Assembly (NCBI RefSeq): GCF_000327385.1
Contig: NW_008709380.1
Location: 1,472,552 to 1,536,551, forward strand
Direction: 5' to 3'
DNA length: 64,000 bases
Origin: Lottia gigantea
Taxonomy: Eukaryota
Shown here: positions 9,691 through 64,000 of the stretch, one piece after another
How positions within the stretch are numbered: position 1 is the stretch's first letter
How the letters are laid out: every line of letters starts with the position of its first letter
Notes under the pieces: model-generated
Databases searched by the model: none
Told to the model about the DNA's origin: nothing
Seen by the model: only the letters and a program-made list of their open reading frames with translations
Translations under genes and position numbers: made by a program

Positions 9691-10026
9691 GTTAGTACAT
9701 TAGTTTCAATTTCCTTTCTCCAGACCGAAGGGAATTTCAAGTATTCTAGTCTAAAGTATGTGCTTCTTTATGGACTTATTTTGATTTCCCATTTGTCCAC
9801 ATAACTCCATTAAAAAGTAATATGTCCAGCAAATCTCTTTTGAATCTCTCCAATTGAGAGAAAGATCTATCAGGCAAAATGATCTGGTTCTTTATAATAG
9901 GCAGACAATGATATGCTGAGTTATATTAGTTGTCCTTTGTTAACTGTCAGTAAAATGTTTTCACTACTGCAATCATTTATGGCTGTGAATAGAAGCAGAA
10001 CTGTCAAATATGAATTATGATTTTAG

Positions 10027-10688
10027 ATGAAGATGATGATGAAATACATATGAATGTTGTCGTCACATCAGAAGATTCATTTATAGATGATGATTACACC
10101 AAAGATTATGGACATGATATTAACATGATACCAGATTCTGATTCTAGTGAGGAGGATGATTCCACAGTATTAGGGAGAAAAACTGAGGACAATTGCAAAG
10201 AATCAGGTTACAAGGTTGAGGATAATTCTACTGTATCAGAGAGCAAAACTGAGAAAAATTCTAAGGAACCTGGATCGAAAGATGAGGACAATTCTGACAA
10301 ATCAGGAAGCAAGGTTGAGGACAATTCCAACAAATCAGGTAGCAAAATTGAGGACAATTCCAAAATGTCAGGGAGCAAAATTGAGGATGATTCCAAAAAC
10401 AAGGACCTCTCGAAACTATCAGATAATAAAGATGATGACCTGTTAGATCAGACAGAAAGTAAAACAGAGGATAATCAAAGCCATATTCAGGATACCACAC
10501 AACAGTCAAGCAATGAGGATATCCAGACTGAGGACAATAAGGATACTCCAGAACAGTCCGATAGTAGGACGGAGGATAATCAGATTACAGATGCTGAAGT
10601 TTCTAATGATCTAGGGAATAGTGATAAGGAAATTCCTCAACAATCATTTAGCAAGGATCAAAATGACAATGATAGTAAGGTATCTTAG
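10027..10688 (+). CDS. DTNBP1: Dysbindin-like terminal exon: an acidic Ser/Asp/Glu-rich low-complexity tail with tandem decapeptide repeats (KSGSK[V/I]EDNS), stop at 10686-10688. A GT at 10678 could instead be a donor to a further exon.
   Basis: Acceptor ttttag at 10021-10026. Long ORF in phase with exon 7. Human dysbindin also ends in an acidic PEST-like tail. Confidence 0.65.
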
Positions 10689-42155: not shown

Positions 42156-44441
42156 TAGCTTCTATCATCCAGTCTCATTTTGTCTACGAAAATCTGCAAC
42201 GAGTCTGGGTGTCAGAGACTTCATATTTAGCAGACGAATTGTACCTCTTAAACGCAAGAATTCAGTCCACAACAAATTTCTACAAGCATCTAGGGGACGT
42301 AATCAAAAATAATCAGACTGCAATAATATGCTCTATCTGATGGGTGTGGCTATTGCACCGAAATGTACTGGATTATTTTTCTAACCAAAATCATATAAAC
42401 AACGTGTTTAATGCATTTGTTGAATACTATACATTGTGTCCAATACGATTCTAATCATAATCTTAAAAAGAATTGAAAAAAAAAAACTAAAATTCAAAAT
42501 TTGTCTCTTTGTTGTCATCTGTAATATCCACATTCCCCCTCTCCAAACACACTACACACATAATCTGGACCATGCCTTCCCCCAGTAGATGAGCAATGGT
42601 CAGTAAAGTTGGCGTAATTTCTAAACATACTTTACATTACAATCTGTTTAAGTTGGCTATATTTGATTTTATTTAGTCGTATTTGAGAAAAGATGATATC
42701 AAAGCTTCTGTCTACAATATAAAGATCTAGTCTATTTAGTTAGTGTATTTCTCAACAATCCAATATTGACACTCTACCTTCCCGAATATCATTTCTAGTC
42801 CATACCACAAGTCGTAATTTCAAATCGTTTAATTTCTTAGGATCCTTTGTAATATCTTTACTCTTTCTGTTTTTTGGATTTGTTTTCGTGTTGTTCCGTT
42901 ATAAACATTTTCAGAGTGCTCCAGGTTGACCTTGCGACTAGTGACATCGCAGGAGATTTTTAACAACTGACGGATGAAGTCGACTCAAGAGCATCGCCAT
43001 ATGCATATGTTCTCTTTTATCTTAAAAATGCCCACAGAGAGGCAGAATCCCCTGGAGAGCAGTTGCTAGTATTGGGAATCAATTTCTCAATTTCAGCGTT
43101 CCGCGAAGTCTGGTGCCGATCCAATGAGATGTTTTGAAACCCTAGTTGACCAGAGCTAATATTGACCTGATGTCGAGACTTCTGTCTGAATTTGAAGCTG
43201 TTCTGAAATACTTGACCACAAACTGTATCATACAATTGCTTTAAATTAGATGTTGCTTTTTATTGTTATGAAAGTGTGATGGCCAAGGTACAGAGGTAAT
43301 GGTGCTCGGCGTAGTGATGTAATATGGCTAACGAATTCTCTACATACCATATCAAGATGAGTTCAGTCCAACTTTTTAGATCAACTAAAACATTCAACAA
43401 ATAAGGATATGTTATTTTCTTGTTGTTTATCTTTTTAAATTGTCAAACTTCAAAGAAATCAACAAATAATGTAAATGGATTTTTGATGTTTGGATAAGCT
43501 TGCTACCGCCATTTTTGAAAATTCGAAATACGTTTTAATATCGATTTCAGCATACACTAGATATCATTTGCGAGTCAGATATGTGTAAATTTGAGTTATT
43601 TTCACACTTAAATACTACAGTCAATTTTCTAAAAGGGGGTCTGTGTATGGTAGCAAGCGATGTTTAGATGTTATTTGTCGATAACGGCTTGTTTTTGTGT
43701 ATTTTTTGCGGCGTTTCAGGTGTTTGAACCAACGAGTGAAGTTTACATTGATACAAGAAAGGTGACCAAAAGGCTTGTAGTTTTACAGTCAGTATTTGTT
43801 GTTGTCTAAGGCAACACGTAATATCAATATCAGAAACATCACGACATGGGACCGGAACAAACATACCCCGACCCCTCACTTTCTACAATTTTCTAAGCGT
43901 GCAATGACGTGATGTCAACGTGAGAAAGTTTGATAAAGAGAAATTCAGAAGACATTATTACCTTGAATATTGTGGTCTGTTTTTAACAAGTTAATAATAC
44001 TATTTCAATATTTCTGGATGTATTTGAAAATTGGGATTAATTTGTTATATTATAAATATATTTTGTAATAATTTGGACTTTATATGTGATTTGGTTATTT
44101 GGACTTCCTAGCTAAACCGGTGAGCCTGATATTTTGTTATTATTTGAACATAATGTAATTGTCCGAATAATATCAAAAGCTTATGTTTATATCATACTGT
44201 TCATGGGCACGACCAAAACATTAGATTTCCTATTAAACATCGTAAGGATATATTACACAAATAATTTTTAATTAGTTACTATCTTGTATTTTGTGCCCAA
44301 AACAAGGCGATTCATGTCATTATATGAGCCAGAGGACAGACCATATTCCATTTGCTACTTTATATTTAAACAGGTAGGCTACATCCTTGATATAGAATAT
44401 TTTTGAAGTGATAGCAGTATGTTAGAGCCCTGGATAACTGC

Positions 44442-44562
44442 GTGATGTTTCATATGACCCAGCTGGGCCCAGGGCTGGGTTCCACCGATCATCTTACTTC
44501 CAGTAATGTAGAGTCTATGGAATACGGATTTGTTGTTTATGATAACCCCAACCACGTTACAG
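44442..44562 (+). CDS. Exon 1 (ATG; cytoplasmic N-terminus MMFHMTQLGPGLGSTDHLTSSNVESMEYGFVVYDNPNHVT) of a type-II membrane SEA/mucin/His-rich glycoprotein gene.
   Basis: ORF with donor acag|gtcagg (phase 1) that is phase-matched to the downstream transmembrane exon. Confidence 0.55.
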
Positions 44563-44947
44563 GTCAGGCATTTTCTTTTGACTTACTTATCCAATATGTG
44601 TGCTCGGATCGTAAGGCTTTTTTTATGTTACTCAAAAACATGAATAGTTTGGTTTTATTTTCGAGTTTAAGTATCGACAGTTTTAAAAGGATTGCACGTT
44701 AAATGTTAGTTTATCAGCAGTGTATAGGTTGCAGATTCTAGATGCTGATTCTATGGTAATTCATCAGCAGAATGTTCCGCCGATGTTAATGAATCTCATT
44801 ATATCTTTCAAAGTAGAGAGTTCTTTGAAATAAACTGTTGAAAGCGTTTTAATCGTTTAAATCCCACTACATGTTGGGTAGACTTCTGGAAACCTGAAAC
44901 GGGAGTAGCATAATATCTTTCGCTTTACACACCATTTCTCATTTCAG

Positions 44948-45067
44948 TATCGAGCTCTACCAGTGTATATAGAAGACCTCGATCTAAATTTTGTATTGGA
45001 CTCATCACATTTGGTATTGTTATCGTTATAACTTCAGTTGCTTTGGGATTTATCATACATTATGCAG
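44948..45067 (+). CDS. Exon 2: signal-anchor/transmembrane segment (VSSSTSVYRRPRSKFCIGLITFGIVIVITSVALGFIIHYA).
   Basis: A basic stretch (YRRPRSK) is followed by about 23 hydrophobic residues. Acceptor ctcatttcag, donor gcag|gttcgt. Phase 1 in and out. Confidence 0.65.
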
Positions 45068-45089
45068 GTTCGTTCCTTTGACTTTGAGT

Positions 45090-45335
45090 TTTGTTCAGTT
45101 TTGAGTCAAATCACAATTATTTCTGTCAAATCTCCTTTCGATCGTATATTTTTCCCAGTCAAATCAAAATTATTTCTCTTCCATCATTGCAAAATTAATT
45201 CTTTTAGGTCAATTCAGAATTTTTTTTCCAATCAATTCAGAATTGTTCCTTTCAGTCAATTCAGAATAATCTCCTTTCAATCAGTCAATTCATTATTACT
45301 ATTATTTTTTCAGTCAATTCAGATCGTCAAGTATC
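45090..45335. repeat. Short tandem repeat of about 8 copies (unit [c/t]agtcaattcagaat..., 25-30 bp). Each copy carries a ttcag acceptor-like motif. The array lies in the intron between the TM exon and the SEA exons.
   Basis: Read directly. Confidence 0.75.
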
Positions 45336-45397
45336 ACCAAGTAGTTCAACCTCTAATGTTCAATCACATGATTATAAAGCAACTAAAGAAATCAAAC
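45314..45397 (+). CDS. Possible exon 3: Ser/Thr-rich linker (VNSDRQVSPSSSTSNVQSHDYKATKEIK). Its acceptor lies inside a short tandem repeat that offers several alternative AG sites.
   Basis: 84 nt, multiple of 3, phase-compatible (1 to 1). Donor aaac|gtaagt. Exon 2 could also splice directly to exon 4, which is phase-compatible. Confidence 0.4.
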
Positions 45398-45730
45398 GTA
45401 AGTCTTTCAACATAATTTAAAATGTTTTCACTTATAAAATAATTCTCAATACATCAGTTGTAGAGCGATAATATAAATGTTATAGAAAATTCAAATGGTC
45501 TTTGTTTGGCTGGTCAAATCCTTATCCGAGTAGTGCATACACTAAAGTATTCATTGGCAAGTGATTATACAGAGCAGGGCTTTCCGCTCACTTCATTCAT
45601 TGTCATCTCCAAATTTTTTTCGAAGAGAAAATGTATCTTTATATAACGTTTAAGCATGACAGAACCAGTTGTAATAACTATGTTCAGGCCATGATATGCG
45701 ACTACATTAACTATACTATGTGCTCTCTAG

Positions 45731-45840
45731 AGGTTGATTTTGAAGGAAGAATACGAATAACAAGTTTAAAATGGATGCCTGATTTAGGAAACCATGCTAA
45801 GGAACTTTACCGAGTTGTGACTAATCATATTCAAAAGGAG
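45731..45840 (+). CDS. SEA-domain exon a (VDFEGRIRITSLKWMPDLGNHAKELYRVVTNHIQKE).
   Basis: Canonical SEA beginning (f.G.fritnl.y.pdl.n..s.ef..l...i). Acceptor tgtgctctctag, donor gag|gtaagc. Confidence 0.75.
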
Positions 45841-46171
45841 GTAAGCACTACTTCTTGCGTTCGTCATTACAATAACACTTACGCGAATTCTGCACTTCCA
45901 TACTTTCAAGCCTTTACTAAAGAAGCCAATGATATTTTGGGTGCTACATGTAAAGTTACTCTTAAAAAGATTATTCATTATTTGAGTGCTTGATGCAATT
46001 TTTGGGAACTATGGGAATTATCTATGATTCAGTCATTATGTCTCTAATATTCCTTAGCAATGAGTATTTTATTCATTGTTTTAATGAATATTGTAAACAT
46101 GTCTTGTCATGTCCAGTTTGTTATCATGTCGTGACTTTTTCACGAAACTCTGTATATTATTTATTTTTCAG

Positions 46172-46239
46172 TTGAATCACGTATTTGAAATAGGTCCACT
46201 AGTAGAAAGATATAACCGTACGGTTGTTGTTGATCTTAG
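46172..46239 (+). CDS. SEA-domain exon b (LNHVFEIGPLVERYNRTVVVDL).
   Basis: Acceptor ttatttttcag, donor ttag|gtgggt. Phase-consistent with the flanking exons. Confidence 0.7.
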
Positions 46240-46815
46240 GTGGGTTTATAAAGCAATCTACTACGCAATTCTGTCAGTTTGATTACAATAACATTTGTAA
46301 GCATTGTCAGAGGTGCAAGGCTACGTGAAGCGATAGAAAACTTCAATGTACTGTGTTAGATCTACAAACCGTTCCTTCTCCTAGTCGAAAACTGACACTC
46401 AAGCAAATATCATTTTCTAGAAACTGCCAAACTCAATTGGGAAGATATGAAGATAGCCATCTTGGATCATTTAAGACATAAATATTATATTGTTTTCACT
46501 ATATTATGATTTCAGTAAGGAAAGATAGAAATAACGTTGATATTCTCTTTGTCTACTACCATAATCCCAAAGCTCCCAGATAAAGGTCTCTTGGTCGAAC
46601 ATCCATCGTATTACTCAAAATTTCGATAATAACCTATAGACTATTGTAAAAATTAATGAAATTGCAGCATTCATTGATTATTTTAACTTCCACAAGTCTT
46701 GAAATGCTGCAACTGGGTTAGTTTCTTTCTGAGATATTTTCGTTCTTCTTTCCTCCCGGTAAGAAGCCACTGTTTTCATATCTTCCATGTGTCATCTTTA
46801 ATCTTTCTATTTCAG

Positions 46816-47015
46816 CCCTGGAAGTGTGATAGTTGATTTTATTGTGGTTTTAAATTCAAGGAGAGGTATAGAATCGGATACTATTAAGGCCATGATGTTA
46901 CAAGGTTTAGAAAAAAGAAGTAAATTCATAAAGAAATTAAAATCCAACCATATGCCTGCTTCGAAGATTGTCTTTGATAAAAGAAGTTTAAAGATAGCTG
47001 ATTCTCATAATCCGG
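46816..47015 (+). CDS. SEA-domain exon c (SPGSVIVDFIVVLNSRRGIESDTIKAMMLQGLEKRSKFIKKLKSNHMPASKIVFDKRSLKIADSHNP).
   Basis: SEA C-terminal signature GSV.V.F.V.f (…PGSVIVDFIVVL…). Acceptor ctatttcag, donor ccgg|gtaaga. Confidence 0.75.
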
Positions 47016-47269
47016 GTAAGAAAACAAACTGACAAGCAAAACAGCTTTGACTGGTTGCCCACATGTAGACACACTTCCGCACTTTCTGATGCACATATTT
47101 TTGTCAAACGACACAGAGAAACAATGAGTTCAATTTGTATCTCAAAGGGACATAATTCTAAGAATTCTAATGCCTATTTGGAAGCATTTTTTCTATATTT
47201 GCACGATAATGAAAAAAAACGATTTGCGTGTTAATTTACTAATCATTTTGATTATTTCACTACTTTCAG

Positions 47270-50200
47270 ATATAAAATCAGAAACCAAGTATATTCCAAA
47301 ACCAAAAATACTTACAGAAATACGACAACCTACTACGACTTCACAAGTACCACATTCGACGACCTTCACCAATGTTTCATCAATGACAAAGAAATCCAAA
47401 AATAAAGGCAAAAAAAAGAAGAAGAAGCCACCAACGACGACCACTATTATTCCTTCCACCACCAAATTACAACATGAGATTACGCTTCCAAGCACAAATA
47501 AAACTGAATCAAGTACAACAGCAAATCAACTAACTACAACGACTCTATCCATAACCACAAAGCCTTCTACCAGGAAACAAAAGAACACTGATACAAAAAC
47601 CACTGTGACTACTACACCATCGAAAACATTGCCGAATACAGAACCCACTACAGTCTCAACAACACCTACAATTATATCAAACAAAAGTCCAAAACCGACC
47701 ACTACTACAAAAACGAAAGTGGATAATACTAAAGAACAACAGAAGCCTAAAAACCTAACCAAAAAATCTAGTCCTAGTAAGAGCATCAACGGTTCTCTGC
47801 AAATTAATCATCATCATTATGATTATAACGACAGCCGCGGTCTTACCCATCATCACATACACCAAGGCATCCAGAATGCCTCCCATCAGCATAACAGTAG
47901 AAATAGCTCATCTATTGTTCATCTTAACAATCATTATCATAGTTTGGATCACCCAAAACATAATCATACCCAGAATGGAAGTCATATTGAGGCTCACGAA
48001 CAAAATCATGAACATAGTCATGATCAGACGTTTTATCACCATCATCAAAATAAAACCCACAATCTTAGCCACATGGAAGACCAAAAAGGGTTCCACAATT
48101 TTAGTGACCACGATGGCCATAATCATAGTACAAACAACACTCAACATTTTCTTCATAAAGAGGTCGACAGCCATCATCACCGCCCTGGCTCTAACAGTTC
48201 GCACTCTGAAGTGCATCATGAAATCAAGCATAAAGATGGCAGTGGTCGTCCTGAACACGGAAATGTGTCATTTCATCATATAAACAACCAATCGGTATTC
48301 TGGTCGACCAACGAAAACGATCCTAAATCATTTCATAACAAATCATATGATGGTCATCTGACAGCAATTGACGACCCTCCTGATAGGATCACTGACATGA
48401 ATGACACAGATGCTGAGGAGGTTCCTTTTCTGAATTCTTTTAGTGCCACAGATTTTGCAGCTGATGGTCGTGAAACGGCAACTTTACCAAATACAATTAA
48501 AGAACATGTTCCCCAACTGACAGACTTAGAACAAAGTGATAATCACATTCCACCTCACGAACCCTATTCCCAGAATTCTAGGGACAAACTAGAAAATTCG
48601 ATCCGAGATTCGAGAGACCGATCTAAAGCGATGGAATATGACCGGATCCTAGCTGGCATGAATAGGAATACAGCGAGAAGTCAACACCACGAAAGCAACA
48701 TGGTAGATCCCGAGGAGTTGGCTAAGGAATCGCCCCCTGTGGATGAGAGGTTTGACAATTACTGGCCTCATGGAAACATGAATCGTCCTTTCAACTTTCC
48801 CAATCGAATAAGTACTCCAAACCCTGTACTCCCACGAACCACCAAAGAAATAAAAGAAAGTGCTAGTGCAAGTACCAAAACTTCAGTAGATGATCTTGAA
48901 ACAGGATCAGGAGAACTGACAGAAACCTTTGAAGATCATATCACTCCTCCACCAACAACTACTTCTAAAGTTATACCACATATACGAGATATTAAGCGAC
49001 CGTCGTTCGACACATCCGGAGATCATCATTATTTCGATTCAACTCAGAGTGGAAACCCATTTCCTAATTCTATATTACCAAATGAGAATCATGGTGATAC
49101 CGAAGACACCCCAGCCTTGGTGCCAAACTCTGAGAAAATCGACTTCTCCAGACACCACAGAGAGGAGGTTCAGGAAGAACATATTGAACATGGTGAAATG
49201 GAAGAACCATTGTTCAATCTACATCATTTAGAATATGCAAGTACAAGACAACCAGGCAAAGATTATTTTGACCACCCGTCGCATTTCCATGATCAGCCAC
49301 ACGATCTAATTGAAAATGACTTAAATATCACCTCCAGTGAAGAAGACATCATTCCAGACCTTCTTGCTAATCATTTAGGCCAAAGACAACTTAACGAGGA
49401 CTTTGAATCGATGCTTTTACACAAAAACAAAACTGATATATTAGTACATCCGTTACCTATATCGGCAGCGGCAGGGGCTGATTTTCCAATGAACACCAAA
49501 GGTGACATTCCCGCTTCTGAGCAGTATCACAAAAAGAATGGTCAATCAAAGAAAGGTCAAGGAATCAGGGAAACTCGCGACAGAAAAGATGATTCTGTAC
49601 CAGACTTTATTGGACATCCAGTAGGTGGTATGGCTCATCTCGGACCATCAAATTTTATGCCATTTCCACCTGCAGCCGGTACTGCCTCAGGCAAAGAAGA
49701 CCTAAATGAAGAGAACGCATTGGATATGGATTATGATTCAAATCTTGGTCCCTCAAACTTTATGCCTCTGCCGCCACAATCATCATTACCTAAAGATCAC
49801 AAAGCTATATTACCTCACGGTGTAACTCCTCCAAAAGTGCACGTCCCGAAGGATGGCGAGGGTGTACTGACACCACCGCCATTGATCCATAAACCGGGAA
49901 TCATAACTCATGTTCTCAATAAAAATAAAAAGAAGGTGAATAAAGACAAAGAGGAACATGCTCATTCCAAGGCACATGTGTCTTTCTATCCAAAAAATAA
50001 ATCGACGCGCAGATCCAACAATGAATTGGACTCATCAAAGGAAAAAACCCGGTTGAATTTAGAAGGCGACAAGTCGCACAAAGAGTCCGATGGGACTAAA
50101 CTAGAATCTCAGAATAAAACCAAAGGACATTCAATGGATTCTCGTGAAAATTCTGTTGAATCAAATGGCGCGAACAGAATAGACTCTAAACAGTTGGCAC

Positions 50201-50440
50201 CAGTGACTACACCATCTGATATAGTGGCATTATTGAATTCAACTAGCCACTATACAAGAGCTAACCTTCTTGATGACATGGAGCCAAATGCAACAAATGA
50301 CTTTGGAAACCTCACCGAGACCAATGAGGAATACACACATGAGATTCAGAACACAAACAAGACTCTGATACAACGGCCTTGGCAGACTGAGTTGAATAAA
50401 ACTCTATCCAATGGAGTGAATGAAACCCAATCTACAATCG
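47270..50440 (+). CDS. Giant 3171-nt exon encoding a disordered extracellular region. It contains a Thr/Pro/Ser-rich mucin-like segment, a roughly 170-aa His-rich/Asn-rich block (about 45 His), dozens of N-x-S/T sequons, and acidic/Pro-rich segments with an internal LGPSNFMP(F/L)PP duplication. It ends at donor atcg|gtaagc.
   Basis: Single 1103-codon ORF (47170-50481). Acceptor tactttcag at 47269 is in phase with the SEA exon. Composition was read directly from the translation. Confidence 0.75.
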
Positions 50441-50760
50441 GTAAGCATAATGATTCATTAGTTGTTATAAGAGGAGCATAAAAACATTTCAATAGCTATT
50501 TTGATATCAACGGCACGAAAGGAAATTTTACTATGCATACATCTGATTATATGGCACAGCTGCTTTGATATTTATTCAAATATATAGTCTTGAATAAATG
50601 GCTAGTGGAATTACGTGGGGTATATGGTATTGTCAAACGCCATTACTTATGGGAATTTTTTTTATCTCATAGTAAAAATATCTATTATTTTAGAATTCTG
50701 TATTAATGTGATATTCATCGTCTAGGCCTTGCAATACCAGTTTGTGTCTTTGTATTTCAG

Positions 50761-50876
50761 CTACCAGTGGTTACAATCCGTGTCAAGACAATGATGTAGT
50801 TTTACAGTACTTAAATAACTGTCGCTCTTATTTCTTTCAAATAATTAGAACAGACCATAATAAATCAAGATGCATG
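50761..50876 (+). CDS. Candidate next exon (ATSGYNPCQDNDVVLQYLNNCRSYFFQIIRTDHNKSRC-). Further 3' exons were not identified.
   Basis: Acceptor tttgtgtctttgtatttcag is phase-compatible with the giant exon. Donor at|gtaagt. Confidence 0.4.
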
Positions 50877-53639
50877 TAAGTAATAAAATTAAACATTTAG
50901 ATAGAAAGTGTCGCTTTTCAAAATAGCTGTGGTTTCACTTTTTATATATGAGTTATCCCCCTTCCTATATATTCCTCTACCATCGCAAACCGTTGTTCAA
51001 TGTTTTGAATGCTGAATTTTACCAACTATGCATTATGCCTTAGCTTCTTGTGGTGGACACGATAGGGTGTGTTCAGCGAGTGTTATAGGTGGTATTTACC
51101 TTAATAGCATATTATTTAAACAATGTAAAATTGCAAAAGTCTGTAAGAAGTTCATGAAAATTATTGGACTGAGGAAATGAGTTATTTCCTGATATGGGAC
51201 TGGGTAAAGTTAGCCAATAAATACACCTAAAGCACATCGGGTCCCAGCCTACGGCCCTGTTAAATCTAATATTAAATTAATGAATATCATATTCCAGGCA
51301 TCTATTAAATGGTATAATGTGTTTAACTGATAGTATATATGATAAATATAATGTGAGATGTACAGATACAGATGTAGAACACGTCATTAAGCTCAACTCC
51401 CAGTCCATACGGCAGTTCTTCCCATCTTTTGATCCTAACCAGTGTTTGAATTAGAGATTGAACCATTATTTCATGAAACATCAATCGTCATCCCGAATTC
51501 CATGATCAAGTGCAAAGAATGTTAATCTTCGACAAGACGAAGCTGGGTATCACTAGAGAAAGAACTGTAATTTCTTGGAACACCAATCTTACTCCTAGTA
51601 GTTTTAAGATTCTGGTCTTCCTACCTTGTCTTGAGCTTATTCTGACCGCCGTTCTTTCAAAATTGGCTCCTTCTAACACAGCGTCTGTGACTTAATGACA
51701 CTGCTCTGATTTAAATATTGTGTAAATATGAAGAATTATGTACATCTTTAATTCTGATTGAATTCGATTCTGTCCTTTTGAGTAGCCATTGAGGACATTT
51801 TTCGAGTTTTTCAAATAAGTGGTATCTAATGCCAAGAGGACTATTGTAACTGGCTCAGCAACGATAAAATCATGCCGTGCATTACCAATGGCTTTAACAA
51901 GTTATTATTTGTATATACATGTATTTCTTATTTCTATATATCTTATGTAAATAATGCTTCATTCATAATCATTTGATAAATCATCTTATATGGTACTGTC
52001 TTCCCAATAAATCATAATCATATGCTATCTGGTGGTTATTCCATGCTCATTCATTAGTCATATCCGGTTAATAACATATCATGAAATTTCTGATGGCGGT
52101 CTTTCAAAACTTGCATCGATCAGATTTCAAACATTCAAGTGTGCTATATTGTACTCTGGACAAATATTGACGTGTAAGTCTTTACTTTTGGCATTAAATT
52201 TAAATTATTAGTTGGATAACACGATCCAAGTCTACCATCTTTTCTCCGACAATCAAACCTCACAGATTATTAAAACGAGAGACTAGAAATAAGGCTATAA
52301 AACTATAATGAATAATTTAGTAGACAATGCTAACAATTTAGTAGAGTCAATAAAAGCAAGGAGAGAGCTAATTAAACAACTATAAAATTGGTCTATAAAT
52401 ACCCAACTAGCCGTCTAATATGCCCGCCATAAATGGCAAGTAGGCGTGTCCCTTAGACTGCTGCTAATAACCTCTATTTACACATGATCGCTTGAATTGT
52501 GCAAGGCGTTTATAGTCCAAGTCCATAAATTACACCATCCTTTTATAGACTTTAATTGGCATTAAACAATGTGTGAAAACATGGGTCCATTTCCAAGCTA
52601 ATGGCTATAACATCTGTCCATTCAGGATTCTATAATATTTCATTGGCGATAAACATCAAACAACCGTTTTACCTCTATATTTTCATTAGATTCGATGTAT
52701 TAAGGCCACCGTGTGCGAAAGTGGATATATGAGGTAATAGGGGACAGAGGCAATGAGGGGGGTCTTACATGGTGGAAATAAATATACCACACAAATAAAT
52801 TACGTTTGCGAATTGACAAACCCACTCGATGAGTGATTTTAGATTCTCCGGTGGAGTAAGTTTGCAATTCCATTCAATCGACACCCATCGTAAATTATTT
52901 GTTTTCTGTTGTGGAATTACCACTGTACATAACCAAAAAGAATTAAAAGGTGAGTAATTGTCTGAAACTGGACCAATTCAGAGAAAATCTTAGATGATGT
53001 AGTTATTTTGTTCGGATTTCTGCACGGAAATGAGAAAACATTTGAATAAACTGTTTTTAAGTTTATATTCAAACATCTAAAACACAATATCTAAGGAATA
53101 AACAAACACGTATAGAGAAATCAAATAATATTTTCAGCATATTTTTAAAAAATTAGCAAAAAAAGTCAACTTCACTTAAATTTAATTTGAAAGATGGAAA
53201 ATTAATAATAAGAATTATTACGTGGTAAAAAATGTTTATCAAATTAGCAGCTGTCGTTTAAATCAATTCAATTCCAAGAGATTTTCCATTTTTTACAAGA
53301 AATAAAATTATTATGTTTAAAGCTCAGTTAGAAGAAATATCAATCAAGAAGGTTTAGTGCGATATATCAAGCTATAATTAAATTAGTTTCAGACTTGTTC
53401 AAAACGAGTAATAAATGAGTATCCCGTTAGACTCTTTACGGTATTTAGAAGCTAAAAATTGACAAGGTAGTGTTAATTGTTGTTGGCATGTCGTATGTTT
53501 AACGTCTACTGACGAATGTTTCCTGAAGATTTTATACTCCCTGAAGTAAGATTAGAAATTCTTGTCATTAATCTTTTATTTATTCGAACACTGATAACAT
53601 AAAGCACATTCGCCTATTCGAAATTTTTTTATGAAAAGG

Positions 53640-55080
53640 GTACTGCAAAAAATCGAGGATAGATCCAGATAGAAAAAAAAAATCAACAACAATAGACAGA
53701 AACAACCAGCGAACCATCATCTTCAACAATAGACGGAAACAACTAGAGAACCACATCAACCAATAGATATAAACAACTAGAGAACCACATCAACAACAAT
53801 AGATATAAACAACTAGAGAACAACAATCAACAACAATAGATATAAACAACTAGAGAACCACATCAACAACAATAGACGGAAACAATGACAGAACCACAAT
53901 CAACAACAATAGATATAAACAACTAGAGAACAACAATCAACAACAATAGATATAAACAACTAGAGAACAACAATCAACAACAATAGATATAAACAACTAG
54001 AGAACAACAATCAACAACAATAGATATAAACAACTAGATAACAAAAATCAACAACAATAGATATAAACAACTAAAGAACAACAATCAACAACAATAGATA
54101 TAAACAACTAGAGAACAACAATCAACAACAATAGATATAAACAACTAGAGAACAACAATCAACAACAATAGATATAAACAACTAGAGAACAACAATCAAC
54201 AACAATAGATATAAACAACTAGAGAACAACAATCAACAACAATAGATATAAACAACTAGATAACAACAATCAACAACAATAGATATAAACAACTAAAGAA
54301 CAACACTCAACAACAATAGATATAAACAACTAGAGAACAACAATCAACAACAATAGATATAAACAACTAGAGAACAACAATCAACAACAATAGATATAAA
54401 CAACTAGAGAACAACAATCAACAACAATAGATATAAACAACTAGAGAACCACATCAACAACAATAGACGGAAACAATGACAGAACCACAATCAACAACAA
54501 TAGACAGGGGCAACTAGAGAACTACTATCAACAACAATAGATATAAACAACTAGAGAACAACAATCAACAACAATAGACAGGGGCAACTAGAGAACTACT
54601 ATCAATAACAATAACAGAAACAACCAGAGATCTACCATCAGCGACTATAAATTGAGACAACTAAAGAATCACCGACAACAACAATAGACAGAAACAACTA
54701 GAGAGCTACTATTAACAACATTAAACAGAAACAATTAGAGAACTATCATCGACAACATTAGATACAAACAACTAGAAACCACCATCAAAAACAATGACGG
54801 AAACTACAATCAACAATAATAGGCAGAAACAGCCAGAGAACCACCATCAACAACAATGATAGAAGCAACTAAAGAATCGCCATCAGTAACAACTAAAGAA
54901 CTAATAACAACAACATTAGACAGAAACAACTAGAGAACTACTATCAACAACTATCACAGAAACAACCAGAGAACTACCATCAACAGCAACGGAGAGAAAC
55001 ATTTAGAAAACCACCATCAACAACAATAGACAGAAACAACCCAAGAACTACCATACACAACAACAATAGACAGAAACTTT
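53640..55080. repeat. Intergenic minisatellite of about 37 copies of a 37-bp unit (atcaacaacaatagatataaacaactagagaacaaca), degenerate at both ends.
   Basis: Read directly. Confidence 0.9.
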
Positions 55081-62014: not shown

Positions 62015-62484
62015 TCACGAATTGTGTTCATCACTGACTTCAATATCTTCGTCGTCGTCATCTGACATATTTCCGTTATCTTTTGTCGGGCTTCTTTCCG
62101 AGCAAGCAATACTGGATGTTGGAGAATGACTGCGACTCGAGTTATGATTTCCTATAATAAGAGTTTCTGTCACTTTTGAAATATCAACAGCCAAAGGTAA
62201 CGTTGGATCAATAGATTTTGTAGCTGTAACGTCATTTTTCAATTCTTCTAAATCACGTTTCAGTTTTGCACGTCTGTTTTGAAACCACGTTATCACTTGC
62301 GCGTTTGTTAGTCCAAGACTTTGAGCGATTTCATCACGATCCGCTGGAGTTAAATATTTCTGATAAAGAAAACGCTTTTCGAGTTCATAAATTTGTTGAT
62401 TTGTAAAAGCTGTTCTGGATTTGCGTCGTTTTTTCGGTGGTTGATTTTTACCAAACAGTGCAGACTGCTCTCGTCTTTTGGCAT
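62015..62484 (-). CDS. LBX: Lbx (ladybird homeobox) exon 2: homeodomain KKRRKSRTAFTNQQIYELEKRFLYQKYLTPADRDEIAQSLGLTNAQVITWFQNRRAKLKRDLEELKNDV plus a Ser-rich/acidic C-terminus and stop.
   Basis: Near-identical to the human LBX1 homeodomain (KKRRKSRTAFTNHQIYELEKRFLYQKYLSPADRDQIAQQLGLTNAQVITWFQNRRAKLKRDLEEMKADV, recalled from memory). Acceptor tttttcag at 62485-62492 (minus strand), phase 1. Exon 1 was not found within the window. Confidence 0.9.
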
Positions 62485-64000
62485 CTGAAAAATAGAAGAT
62501 TTTGGAATAATTAATAAGATGCAATTTTTTTTTAAAAAAAATCTTGTTTTGGAATAGCTATATATAAGAGTGCAAGCTAGCTCAATATATAATCCGTGTA
62601 CACGTATTTTGGAAGCATAACATGTGACAGCAGTGCTCGTATATAGTGCACGAAAGTTTCTTGAGTTTTTGACTGACACGTCGCACATTATCGACATACG
62701 ACAGAAAGCAAGGCATATTTTATCCTAGATTTTAATAATTCATATTCCTTTCATAAAAACAAGACAGGTGATGAGGTTTTATCATGATCATACTTTATTC
62801 TCGTCATTTATCATGATCGAGAATCCAATATGGCGGCTACCTATTTTCTAGACACCCCTGTCATGTTGGACATACGCCTTGGATAAAAACGCCTGTTACA
62901 AACTGTCAAAGATTAAAGACAACCGCCTATGCTCGCGGCGAGTGTTAGAAGTGTACAATTTAGTTATTATAATATACCAATTAAATATATCATTATGTTA
63001 ATAATAGGTCGAGAAAACTTTTTATATTATATGACGTTAGCCAACTTCATTATTTTCTGTAATGTGCTTACTCCGCGGTCCGCGCCATACAAGCTACAAC
63101 TAAGAATTGATAGAGATCGTTTGTTGATCAAAAACGCTTAGCCTACGTAGCTTATGTTCATATATTTATTTATTCATCTTAAATATATTTTTTCTAAAAT
63201 TTCGAAAAAGTACACCGGTAATAAATTCACAAAATATTCATTATTAAATATTCTTAAAAAGCTAGCTTGTTATCGCTCTTTACATTAACATAAAACACAC
63301 TTTTTATAGTTTTTCTACGACAAATTCCATGTCACATTTTTAATAATTTTATTCAAATTTAATCCTATAAAAGAAAAAATTTAGAATTAATTTATTTTAC
63401 ACACTTTTTCGCCTAAACCTCTTGAACCTACATTGAAATTTTATTTTATTGTTCATTTTTCTTTAATTTATATCAATTTGCAAAATAAATCTCTGTGATT
63501 ATTCCCAATTGCAGTCAATAATTGTATTCAAACGATAACGTTATGTTTGGGTCGAAGCGTTGGTTTGGGGAGACTTGCATGACATGTATATATCGAAATA
63601 TGGGTACATTGGGAAATTGTTTTGAACCCCTACCTCTTTGACCCGGCACTATTGCTGACACAAATTGATCTGCTAAAGTACAAAAAATCGATTCACGCTG
63701 CCGTCAAGGGAACACAAAGTCAATCGATAACCAGGATAAAATTCATTGAAATACAAAACTTTCAATCGATTTTTCAATAACATCAGTATTATTAAATATA
63801 ATTATTCACTTAACCCTTTACATGGTGCTGCTTTCATTAACCCCTTGAGTGCGTATCTATTAGCGGTTAATAATTAAAAGTTTGGATTTTAAGGAGAATC
63901 AACTGTAATTGAACCCATCATTTTAACCCATCAAAGGCTTCACAGAAATTCCCTTATACTTTGACTAATCCATAAAGCCTAAAATTACCAGAAATTGCTC

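Follow-up and report, generated by a model that had tools for sequence, protein, structure and literature searches.

A gene of nine exons, located at positions 44445-51454 on the plus strand of a 64,000-nucleotide stretch of the Lottia gigantea genome (contig NW_008709380.1; the whole stretch is referred to as the window), was rebuilt from the raw sequence and encodes, in one uninterrupted coding sequence, a product of 1380 amino acids (aa). With a probability of about 0.72, this product is a single-pass type II membrane glycoprotein that carries a SEA domain, a mucin-like ectodomain and, at its distal end, a domain with six cysteines (6-Cys domain). The locus had been noticed before in a preliminary description, made from the letters of the window, which had proposed a membrane anchor, a SEA domain and a giant exon of mucin-like composition; its observations were partly confirmed and its interpretation was partly supported.

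Gene structure and orthologues

All exon boundaries of the rebuilt model were of the AG/GT type and the phase was continuous over the nine exons, all of which lie on the plus strand. An in-frame stop codon was located 5' of exon 1, at position 44412. The GC content was 0.39 in exons versus 0.33 in introns; in the AT-rich window as a whole it was ~0.32 and rose to 0.42 across the big open reading frame (ORF). An ORF of 1103 codons in DNA of ~35-40% GC is far beyond chance. Intron 2 contains a tandem repeat at 45199-45283 with a period of 23-24 bp and ~3 copies (TCAATTCAGAATT...). The three exons at 45731-47015 and the exon of 3.17 kb that had been delineated previously matched the rebuilt model exactly, the seven exons implied by that delineation were all bordered by AG/GT and in phase, and the upstream signal-anchor exons likewise fitted the earlier account. 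The end of the gene, formerly placed at 50876, had to be revised: exon 8 stops at 50875, next to a GT donor, and is followed by a ninth exon at 51298-51454, which had been overlooked because exon 8 was read on into a TAA codon ending at 50876.

When proteins were searched with the spliced translation, it proved 100% identical to L. gigantea LOTGIDRAFT_163537. This public entry has 1300 aa and is labelled "hypothetical protein / SEA domain-containing protein"; the deposited protein of the locus is ESO91020/XP_009058291 (Joint Genome Institute (JGI) ID 163537). The gene had been described as lacking a recognisable orthologue, but protein and profile searches yielded orthologues of common architecture in Patella and Haliotis. 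These comprise Patella vulgata LOC126815847, for which four isoforms are predicted that differ in the cytoplasmic tail or start only, Patella caerulea SNE40_017849, and the proteins of Haliotis asinina (automatically named "serine-rich adhesin for platelets-like"), H. rufescens ("mucin-5AC-like") and H. cracherodii. The Patella orthologues could be aligned with the Lottia protein from end to end with ~44% identity, which reached ~70% across the cytoplasmic tail, transmembrane (TM) segment and SEA domain and was far lower in the spacer that follows. The Haliotis proteins showed the same order from TM segment and SEA domain to the 6-Cys domain, with 29% identity to Lottia over the juxtamembrane tail, TM segment and SEA domain (pairwise E=2e-20). 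When the proteins of P. caerulea and H. asinina were compared with their own loci by tblastn, the nine-exon layout was found in both species, with a giant exon of 3.0 kb and 3.9 kb, respectively, and two small terminal exons in both; this conserved layout appears to be the best available support for the predicted exon joins.

The earlier proposal of a lineage-restricted family also held, in that orthologues were found in gastropods only, together with oyster proteins sharing its modules, in an index that misses known members. A chimeric query composed of the N-terminal and 6-Cys regions retrieved only the limpet and abalone orthologues from the word index and missed the oyster proteins contained in the query; the index is thus incomplete and does not bound the taxonomic range, and the family may extend beyond Patellogastropoda, Vetigastropoda and oysters. 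A Logan contig of 4285 bp was considered as a transcript and rejected, as its ends run into intron and it represents genomic DNA with the giant exon from a species of Haliotis.

Anchor, SEA domain and glycosylated spacer

Kyte-Doolittle analysis of the 1380-aa product revealed one single hydrophobic segment of TM grade, at aa ~54-78 or, more broadly, ~51-82, with a maximum of 2.7 at aa 51-64 in a 19-residue window; an N-terminal signal peptide was not seen in the hydropathy profile. The segment (FCIGLITFGIVIVITSVALGFIIHY) is encoded by exon 2 (44948-45067) and is preceded by RRPRSK, in agreement with the N-terminal signal anchor that had been predicted for this exon. Because four basic residues flank the segment on its N-terminal side, the positive-inside rule suggests a type II signal anchor with the N-terminus inside the cell. 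In Patella the anchor is invariant or conservatively substituted, and the Haliotis anchor aligns to it.

Most of the cytoplasmic tail is encoded by exon 1 (44445-44562), which begins with the start codon (MFHMTQ...) and has a GT donor at its 3' end. The tail contains the limpet-invariant sequence YGFVVYDNPNHV with a YxxPhi-like element inside, and the N-terminus is identical with that of P. vulgata isoform X2. In P. vulgata isoform X3, a segment of 20 aa (GNVDSMEYGFVVYDNPNHVT) including the conserved YGFVVYDNPNHV is missing; the tail of X1 carries an insert of 18 aa, and X4 begins within the SEA domain and lacks the anchor. It may be speculated that alternative splicing of YGFVVYDNPNHV in these predicted isoforms serves regulated trafficking. 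Exon 3 (45314-45397; AG/GT, phase matched) encodes a Ser-rich juxtamembrane linker, aa 80-107, and has its counterpart as an exon of its own in the corresponding place in P. caerulea and H. asinina.

The SEA domain is encoded by three exons, whose limits were assigned from splice sites, the Pfam match and an AlphaFold2 (AF2) model. Exon 4 (45731-45840) comprises strand beta1 and helix alpha1 (VDFEGRIRITSLKW...HIQKE), exon 5 (46172-46239) strand beta2 (...YNRTVVVDL), and exon 6 (46816-47015) the G169/S170-V-I-V sequence at the beta2-beta3 turn (codons at 46820-46825), followed by beta3, alpha2 and beta4. The check by hidden Markov model (HMM) that had been recommended for these exons gave a match of Pfam SEA PF01390 to aa 110-192 with E=6.7e-13 and 49.1 bits, compared with a cut-off of 26.4. 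The orthologues scored 46.3 bits (Patella) and 29.6 bits (Haliotis), both above the Pfam gathering threshold. In the Lottia and Patella proteins Pfam recognised SEA only, and a Trypsin domain was absent from the Lottia, Patella and Haliotis proteins. The AF2 model of aa 100-233 had a mean predicted local distance difference test (pLDDT) value of 79.9 and showed the beta-alpha-beta-beta-alpha-beta order of the SEA topology, with strands at 12-22, 59-68, 71-80 and 121-130 and helices at 33-51 and 88-109 in the numbering of the fragment. All seven Foldseek matches in the PDB with E<=1e-3 were SEA domains, namely of TMPRSS6, MUC16 and mouse TMPRSS11-type (2e7v) proteins; the best was the SEA domain of TMPRSS6 with E=7.3e-9 and a TM value of 0.74. 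Comparison of an N-terminal profile with PDB sequences gave two best matches that were not significant, one of them again mouse 2e7v (E=0.36).

SEA domains with an intact G/S[VI][VI]V motif, such as those of MUC1, matriptase and enteropeptidase, cleave themselves while folding and yield two non-covalently held chains. In the Lottia protein the motif is PGSVIV at aa 168-173, with G169-S170 in the predicted hairpin turn between beta2 and beta3 of the AF2 model, and the G-S pair was invariant in every limpet, abalone and oyster SEA copy aligned.

The SEA domain is followed by a spacer of ~1050 residues, encoded by the giant exon 7 (47270-50440; 3171 bp) and entirely free of cysteine. Its first part (47270-47811, aa 235-414) is a mucin-like block rich in Thr, Lys, Ser and Pro, in which 69 of the 180 residues are Ser or Thr and 33 are Lys or Arg; over aa 234-430 the composition was 25% T, 16% K, 11% S and 9% P. 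The counterpart in Patella is likewise rich in Ser and Thr. Judged by its composition, the block is predicted to be a Pro/Thr/Ser-rich domain suited to dense O-glycosylation. The second part is rich in His (47812-48294, aa 415-575). The third (48295-50440, aa 576-1290) is a disordered, acidic, Pro- and Ser-rich region without cysteine that ends in a sequon-rich tail and the donor G/GTAAGC; downstream of the His-rich block, Asp and Glu outnumber Lys and Arg.

The mucin-like T/P/S runs, the His-rich segment and the acidic stretches formerly ascribed to this exon are all present, as are the more than 30 N-x-S/T sequons: 32 were counted in the protein, 30 of them in exon 7, compared with 16.2+-3.5 in shuffled sequences (a number reached in 1 of 5000 shuffles), corresponding to a ~1.9-fold excess. 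The product of the exon had also been called 100% low-complexity. While the stated composition was found, the figure of 100% was not, since the third part contains islands of limpet-conserved motifs, i.e. DRITxxNDTDA, NSFxATDF, IPPHE, two copies of LGPSNxMPxPP and TPPPLIHKPGIITHV. These islands were not found in Haliotis. The proposed layout of a SEA domain followed by a mucin-like disordered ectodomain was supported, and the sequons predict that this ectodomain is hyperglycosylated. No similarity between limpet and abalone spacers could be detected (BLASTP best E=0.21), but the spacer of every orthologue had a length of 1000-1290 aa, zero Cys, 19-30 sequons and a composition rich in S, T, N, D, E and P. 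As length and composition are kept without similarity in sequence, the spacer seems to be selected for its bulk physical properties between two bookend domains.

The His-rich block contains 40 His in 161 aa and 13 sequons, compared with 3.0+-1.5 in shuffled sequences (reached in 0 of 5000). Approximately 130 of its residues fall opposite gaps in the two Patella species and no such block exists in Haliotis; the His content of the spacer falls from 7.9% in Lottia to 5.5% in Patella and 3.7% in Haliotis. The strong His block therefore seems to be a lineage-specific expansion in Lottia. Within the block, His residues and sequons are interleaved (HNHT, NGSH, NKTH, NLSH, NHST, NSSH and others), with sequons more than four-fold in excess over shuffled sequences. 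This regular pairing within 47812-48294 is accounted for by no explanation offered here.

An alternative reading takes the protein to be primarily a metal-binding or biomineral glycoprotein of the shell matrix or of the iron-mineralised radular teeth, with the block of interleaved His and sequons as its functional core and the acidic stretches following it. Limpet teeth are mineralised with goethite (PMC9263180), which was counted in favour of this reading, and the His content of the orthologue spacers, given above, still exceeds the ~2% assumed to be typical. Evidence from conservation points the other way, as the His block is largely missing from Patella and absent from Haliotis while the other architecture is conserved. 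Neither a membrane anchor nor a SEA stem is, moreover, typical of matrix proteins, and the paper on limpet teeth makes no mention of mucins or SEA domains and names histidine only in a cited title. Literature searches yielded no link of such a protein to radula or shell. ID 163537 was absent from the supplementary files of two shell-matrix proteomes, PMC3374290 (17 files) and PMC4094399 (5 files), some of which were searched in part; a control, ID 232880, was found in the tables of PMC3374290 (2012), and proteins with heavy glycosylation are difficult to find by such means. With a His block specific to Lottia and ID 163537 absent from the searched files of the two shell proteomes, the metal-binding, biomineral or adhesive role suggested in the preliminary description is unsupported as the core function, and we regard this alternative as unlikely. 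That the His block of Lottia binds metals, as an addition to a mucin-like membrane glycoprotein, is plausible.

The six-cysteine domain and the public gene model

The C-terminal 89 residues (aa 1292-1380) form a domain with six invariant cysteines. Its first half (YNPCQDNDVVLQYLNNCRSYFFQIIRTDHNKSRC) is encoded by exon 8 (50761-50875), with an AG acceptor, a GT donor and the correct phase, and its second half (MHLLNGIMCLTD...FDPNQCLN) by exon 9 (51298-51454), with the stop codon at 51452-51454. The Patella orthologue ends with YNPCRDNDVVLQYL...DPKQCLS, corresponding to the sequence that exons 8 and 9 encode in the window. The domain is 69% identical between Lottia and Patella with all six cysteines kept; as both exons are also intact and in phase, they appear to be under continued selection. 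AF2 modelling of aa 1292-1380 gave an all-helical structure of five helices with a pLDDT of 84.5 and a predicted template modelling score (pTM) of 0.71. No Pfam family was matched even at E<=10, and no significant fold match was obtained in the PDB.

An exhaustive HMM search for the 6-Cys module among 1.84 billion representative proteins detected the C-terminus of the Haliotis orthologue with E=2.4e-12 and oyster proteins with E=2e-9 and 2.7e-4. In Magallana gigas XP_065925759 (2894 aa), seven stretches were matched by the profile, and Crassostrea virginica LOC111102138 (670 aa) was matched as well. With an iterated local HMM, ~11 copies of the module were found in the M. gigas protein and 4 in the C. 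virginica protein. Most of the 19 copies aligned in this way keep all Cys columns, and together they define a module of ~85-90 aa with the pattern C-x11-13-C-x15-18-C-x8-C-x12-C-x26-28-C, which starts with PCxD and ends with P[FY]DPxxC. According to Pfam, the oyster proteins contain up to 9 SEA and 6 WAP domains, and in the M. gigas protein the order from the N-terminus is again cytoplasmic tail, anchor, SEA domain and Thr-rich block. A metagenomic repeat protein of 353 aa, matched with E=1.4e-4, was dismissed as spurious, since it has one Cys per repeat and not the 6-Cys pattern. Literature searches on the gene ID, His-rich radula proteins, molluscan type II SEA mucins and oyster SEA/WAP proteins found nothing describing the protein or the domain. 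The 6-Cys module would thus apparently constitute an undescribed extracellular domain, which has been recurrently joined with SEA domains in molluscs.

The entire domain is missing from the public gene model. The deposited JGI protein ESO91020/XP_009058291 ends in ...VVIRGA (...GKHNDSLVVIRGA), having been read past the donor at 50440 into the intron (50441-50481), where a stop codon lies at 50479-50481; the Patella and Haliotis proteins run on into the Cys domain at the point where the JGI model stops. If the deposited protein were the real product, exons 8 and 9 would have no use in Lottia, being a relic or part of a minor isoform. This reading is very unlikely, because the donor (G/GTAAGC) matches the splice consensus well, the tail of 13 residues gained by read-through has no counterpart in the orthologues, and the state of exons 8 and 9, i.e. 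intact, in phase and conserved together with their cysteines, argues for the spliced form as the functional one. The 3' end of the JGI model probably reflects an error of annotation or the retention of the intron, and read-through as a minor isoform is possible.

Less probable still is the reading of the giant ORF as a separate intronless or secreted gene starting from the ATG at 47209, or as a pseudogene, with the TM and SEA exons belonging to another gene: the ORF (47170-50481) does reach 100 nucleotides 5' of the acceptor, and the ATG is followed by the signal-peptide-like MKKNDLRVNLLIILIISLLS, but the corresponding extension in P. caerulea has 7 codons and no ATG, the hydrophobic run (47209-47269) overlaps the branch point and polypyrimidine tract of intron 6, the phase continues over all nine exons in an order common to three genera, independent annotation pipelines join the exons in Patella and Haliotis, and an open frame of over 1000 codons in each of the species speaks against a pseudogene. 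One spliced gene, as formerly assumed, is thus indicated. A secreted isoform from an alternative promoter, beginning at the ATG of intron 6, is barely conceivable beside it.

Several points weigh against the reading of the product as a type II SEA mucin with a distal Cys domain. The exon joins are based on splice signals, phase and orthologue gene models that are themselves computational predictions, and the JGI model ends otherwise, which makes it possible that an isoform retains the intron and lacks the C-terminal domain. The type II topology rests on the positive-inside rule and not on a dedicated predictor. The SEA motif of Haliotis is GSIVA and not GSV[VI]V. Finally, the tandem repeats typical of mucins are absent: Tandem Repeats Finder (TRF) at a score of at least 30 reported three trivial repeats of ~2 copies within 47270-50440.

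Proposed function, neighbouring loci and known systems

On the favoured reading of a type II SEA mucin, we infer topology, cleavage, glycosylation, shedding and ligand binding as follows. The SEA domain would cleave itself during folding, after which the anchor stub and the large ectodomain would be joined by non-covalent contacts only. A glycosylated ectodomain of ~1200 residues would thereby be tethered through the SEA domain to a short membrane stub, and mechanical force or further proteolysis could release it in its entirety. The Cys-free glycosylated spacer would act as an extended stalk or as an element of the glycocalyx, keeping the 6-Cys domain at a great distance from the cell surface, where this domain might serve as a distal head for binding or self-association. 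In functional terms, the protein would mirror the vertebrate type I TM mucins, on a TM-SEA stem like that of the type II transmembrane serine proteases but with a putative binding domain in place of the protease. The His-rich segment would be an elaboration of the spacer in the Lottia lineage, which may bind metals or respond to pH and would lie outside the conserved core. In a wider formulation, the gene would represent, in minimal form, the founding member of a mollusc-specific group of type II "mirror-image" SEA mucins, which arose independently of the vertebrate type I mucins and is defined by the 6-Cys domain as a distal head, and to which the Lottia stalk has added a glycan-shielded poly-His sensor of metal or pH; we put this forward tentatively, at somewhat less than an even chance.

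The immediate consequence is the correction of a public gene model, as the Lottia protein in GenBank and UniProt lacks its most conserved distal domain. The results further suggest that a cell-surface design of SEA domain plus mucin also occurs in the opposite membrane orientation, in gastropods, which bears on the evolutionary recombination of SEA "breakaway" modules and mucin stalks. They also point to a small disulfide-rich helical domain, common to the oyster SEA/WAP proteins, without a Pfam family or a significant structural neighbour in the PDB. The significance is modest, given that the protein is functionally uncharacterised; it lies chiefly in annotation and domain cataloguing, and no long-standing open question is addressed.

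Other features of the window were recorded beside the gene. Between its end and an Lbx exon, a 37-bp minisatellite occupies the intergenic region at 53670-55077, with ~30 copies (87% match) that continue in degenerate form up to 55077; it accounts for an AT-skew peak of 0.30 at 54-56 kb. The Lbx/ladybird-type homeobox exon itself is located at 62015-62524 on the minus strand (KKRRKSRTAFTNQQIYELEKRF...; Pfam Homeodomain E=2.3e-22), which agrees with the naming of Lbx as a neighbour in the preliminary description. On the other side, two adjoining ORFs at 34098-34999 on the minus strand each match DUF4062 over one half of the domain (E=7.8e-10 and 1.6e-4) and are consistent with a part of a multi-exon TEP1/NACHT-type gene, the candidate TEP1. 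In the region of this TEP1-like gene, at 32115-33382, there is a compound satellite whose nested periods measure 19, 62 and 143 bp; it explains a GC-skew dip of -0.34. An ORF of 223 aa at 10017-10688 on the plus strand, acidic and rich in Ser, Asp and Glu, contains repeated SGSK(V/I)EDNS units. It matched nothing in Pfam and probably represents a low-complexity exon that belongs to another gene. Within flanks of 10 kb around the orthologous loci in P. caerulea and H. asinina, neither Lbx nor the TEP1-like gene was present. The next gene upstream of the H. asinina orthologue is a cytochrome P450 gene (1-2707 of that locus, minus strand) and not a TEP1-like gene, and the local gene order may therefore differ from that of Lottia.

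Four known systems can be compared with the limpet protein. The type I TM mucins (MUC1, MUC3, MUC12, MUC13, MUC16 and MUC17) also have a membrane-proximal SEA domain with a G/S[VI]VV motif beside a long Ser/Thr/Pro-rich glycosylated region, and the non-covalent two-chain complex and the sheddable ectodomain would be further common traits; the SEA domain of MUC16 was among the top structural matches. In contrast to these mucins, the limpet protein has an N-terminal anchor, a mucin region C-terminal to the SEA domain, no signal peptide and no tandem repeats, and the mucins have no distal helical 6-Cys domain; sequence similarity is confined to the SEA domain. The type I orientation was not encountered, as the sole hydrophobic segment is N-terminal to the SEA domain and the C-terminus is a soluble Cys domain.

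The type II transmembrane serine proteases share the order of cytoplasmic tail, signal anchor and juxtamembrane SEA domain. Unlike them, the limpet protein contains neither a trypsin-like S1 protease domain nor CUB, LDLa or SRCR domains according to Pfam, and has the spacer and the helical Cys domain instead. Histidine-rich glycoproteins, i.e. HRG of vertebrate plasma and of Mytilus haemolymph, resemble it in a His-rich region with N-glycosylation sites, for which multivalent metal binding is plausible. The limpet protein differs from them in the lack of a cystatin-type domain (Pfam) and of tandem repeats (TRF) and in being anchored in the membrane rather than soluble; the resemblance is compositional only, and even within the limpets the His block lacks conservation. 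In the oyster proteins of M. gigas and C. virginica, the 6-Cys module is likewise combined with SEA domains, and that of M. gigas resembles the limpet protein further in its type II anchor, membrane-proximal SEA domain and mucin block rich in Thr. With 4 to ~11 modules, WAP four-disulfide-core domains and many SEA domains, they differ from the limpet and abalone proteins, which have one SEA domain, one module and a much longer spacer, and they are paralogous members of the family and not orthologues.

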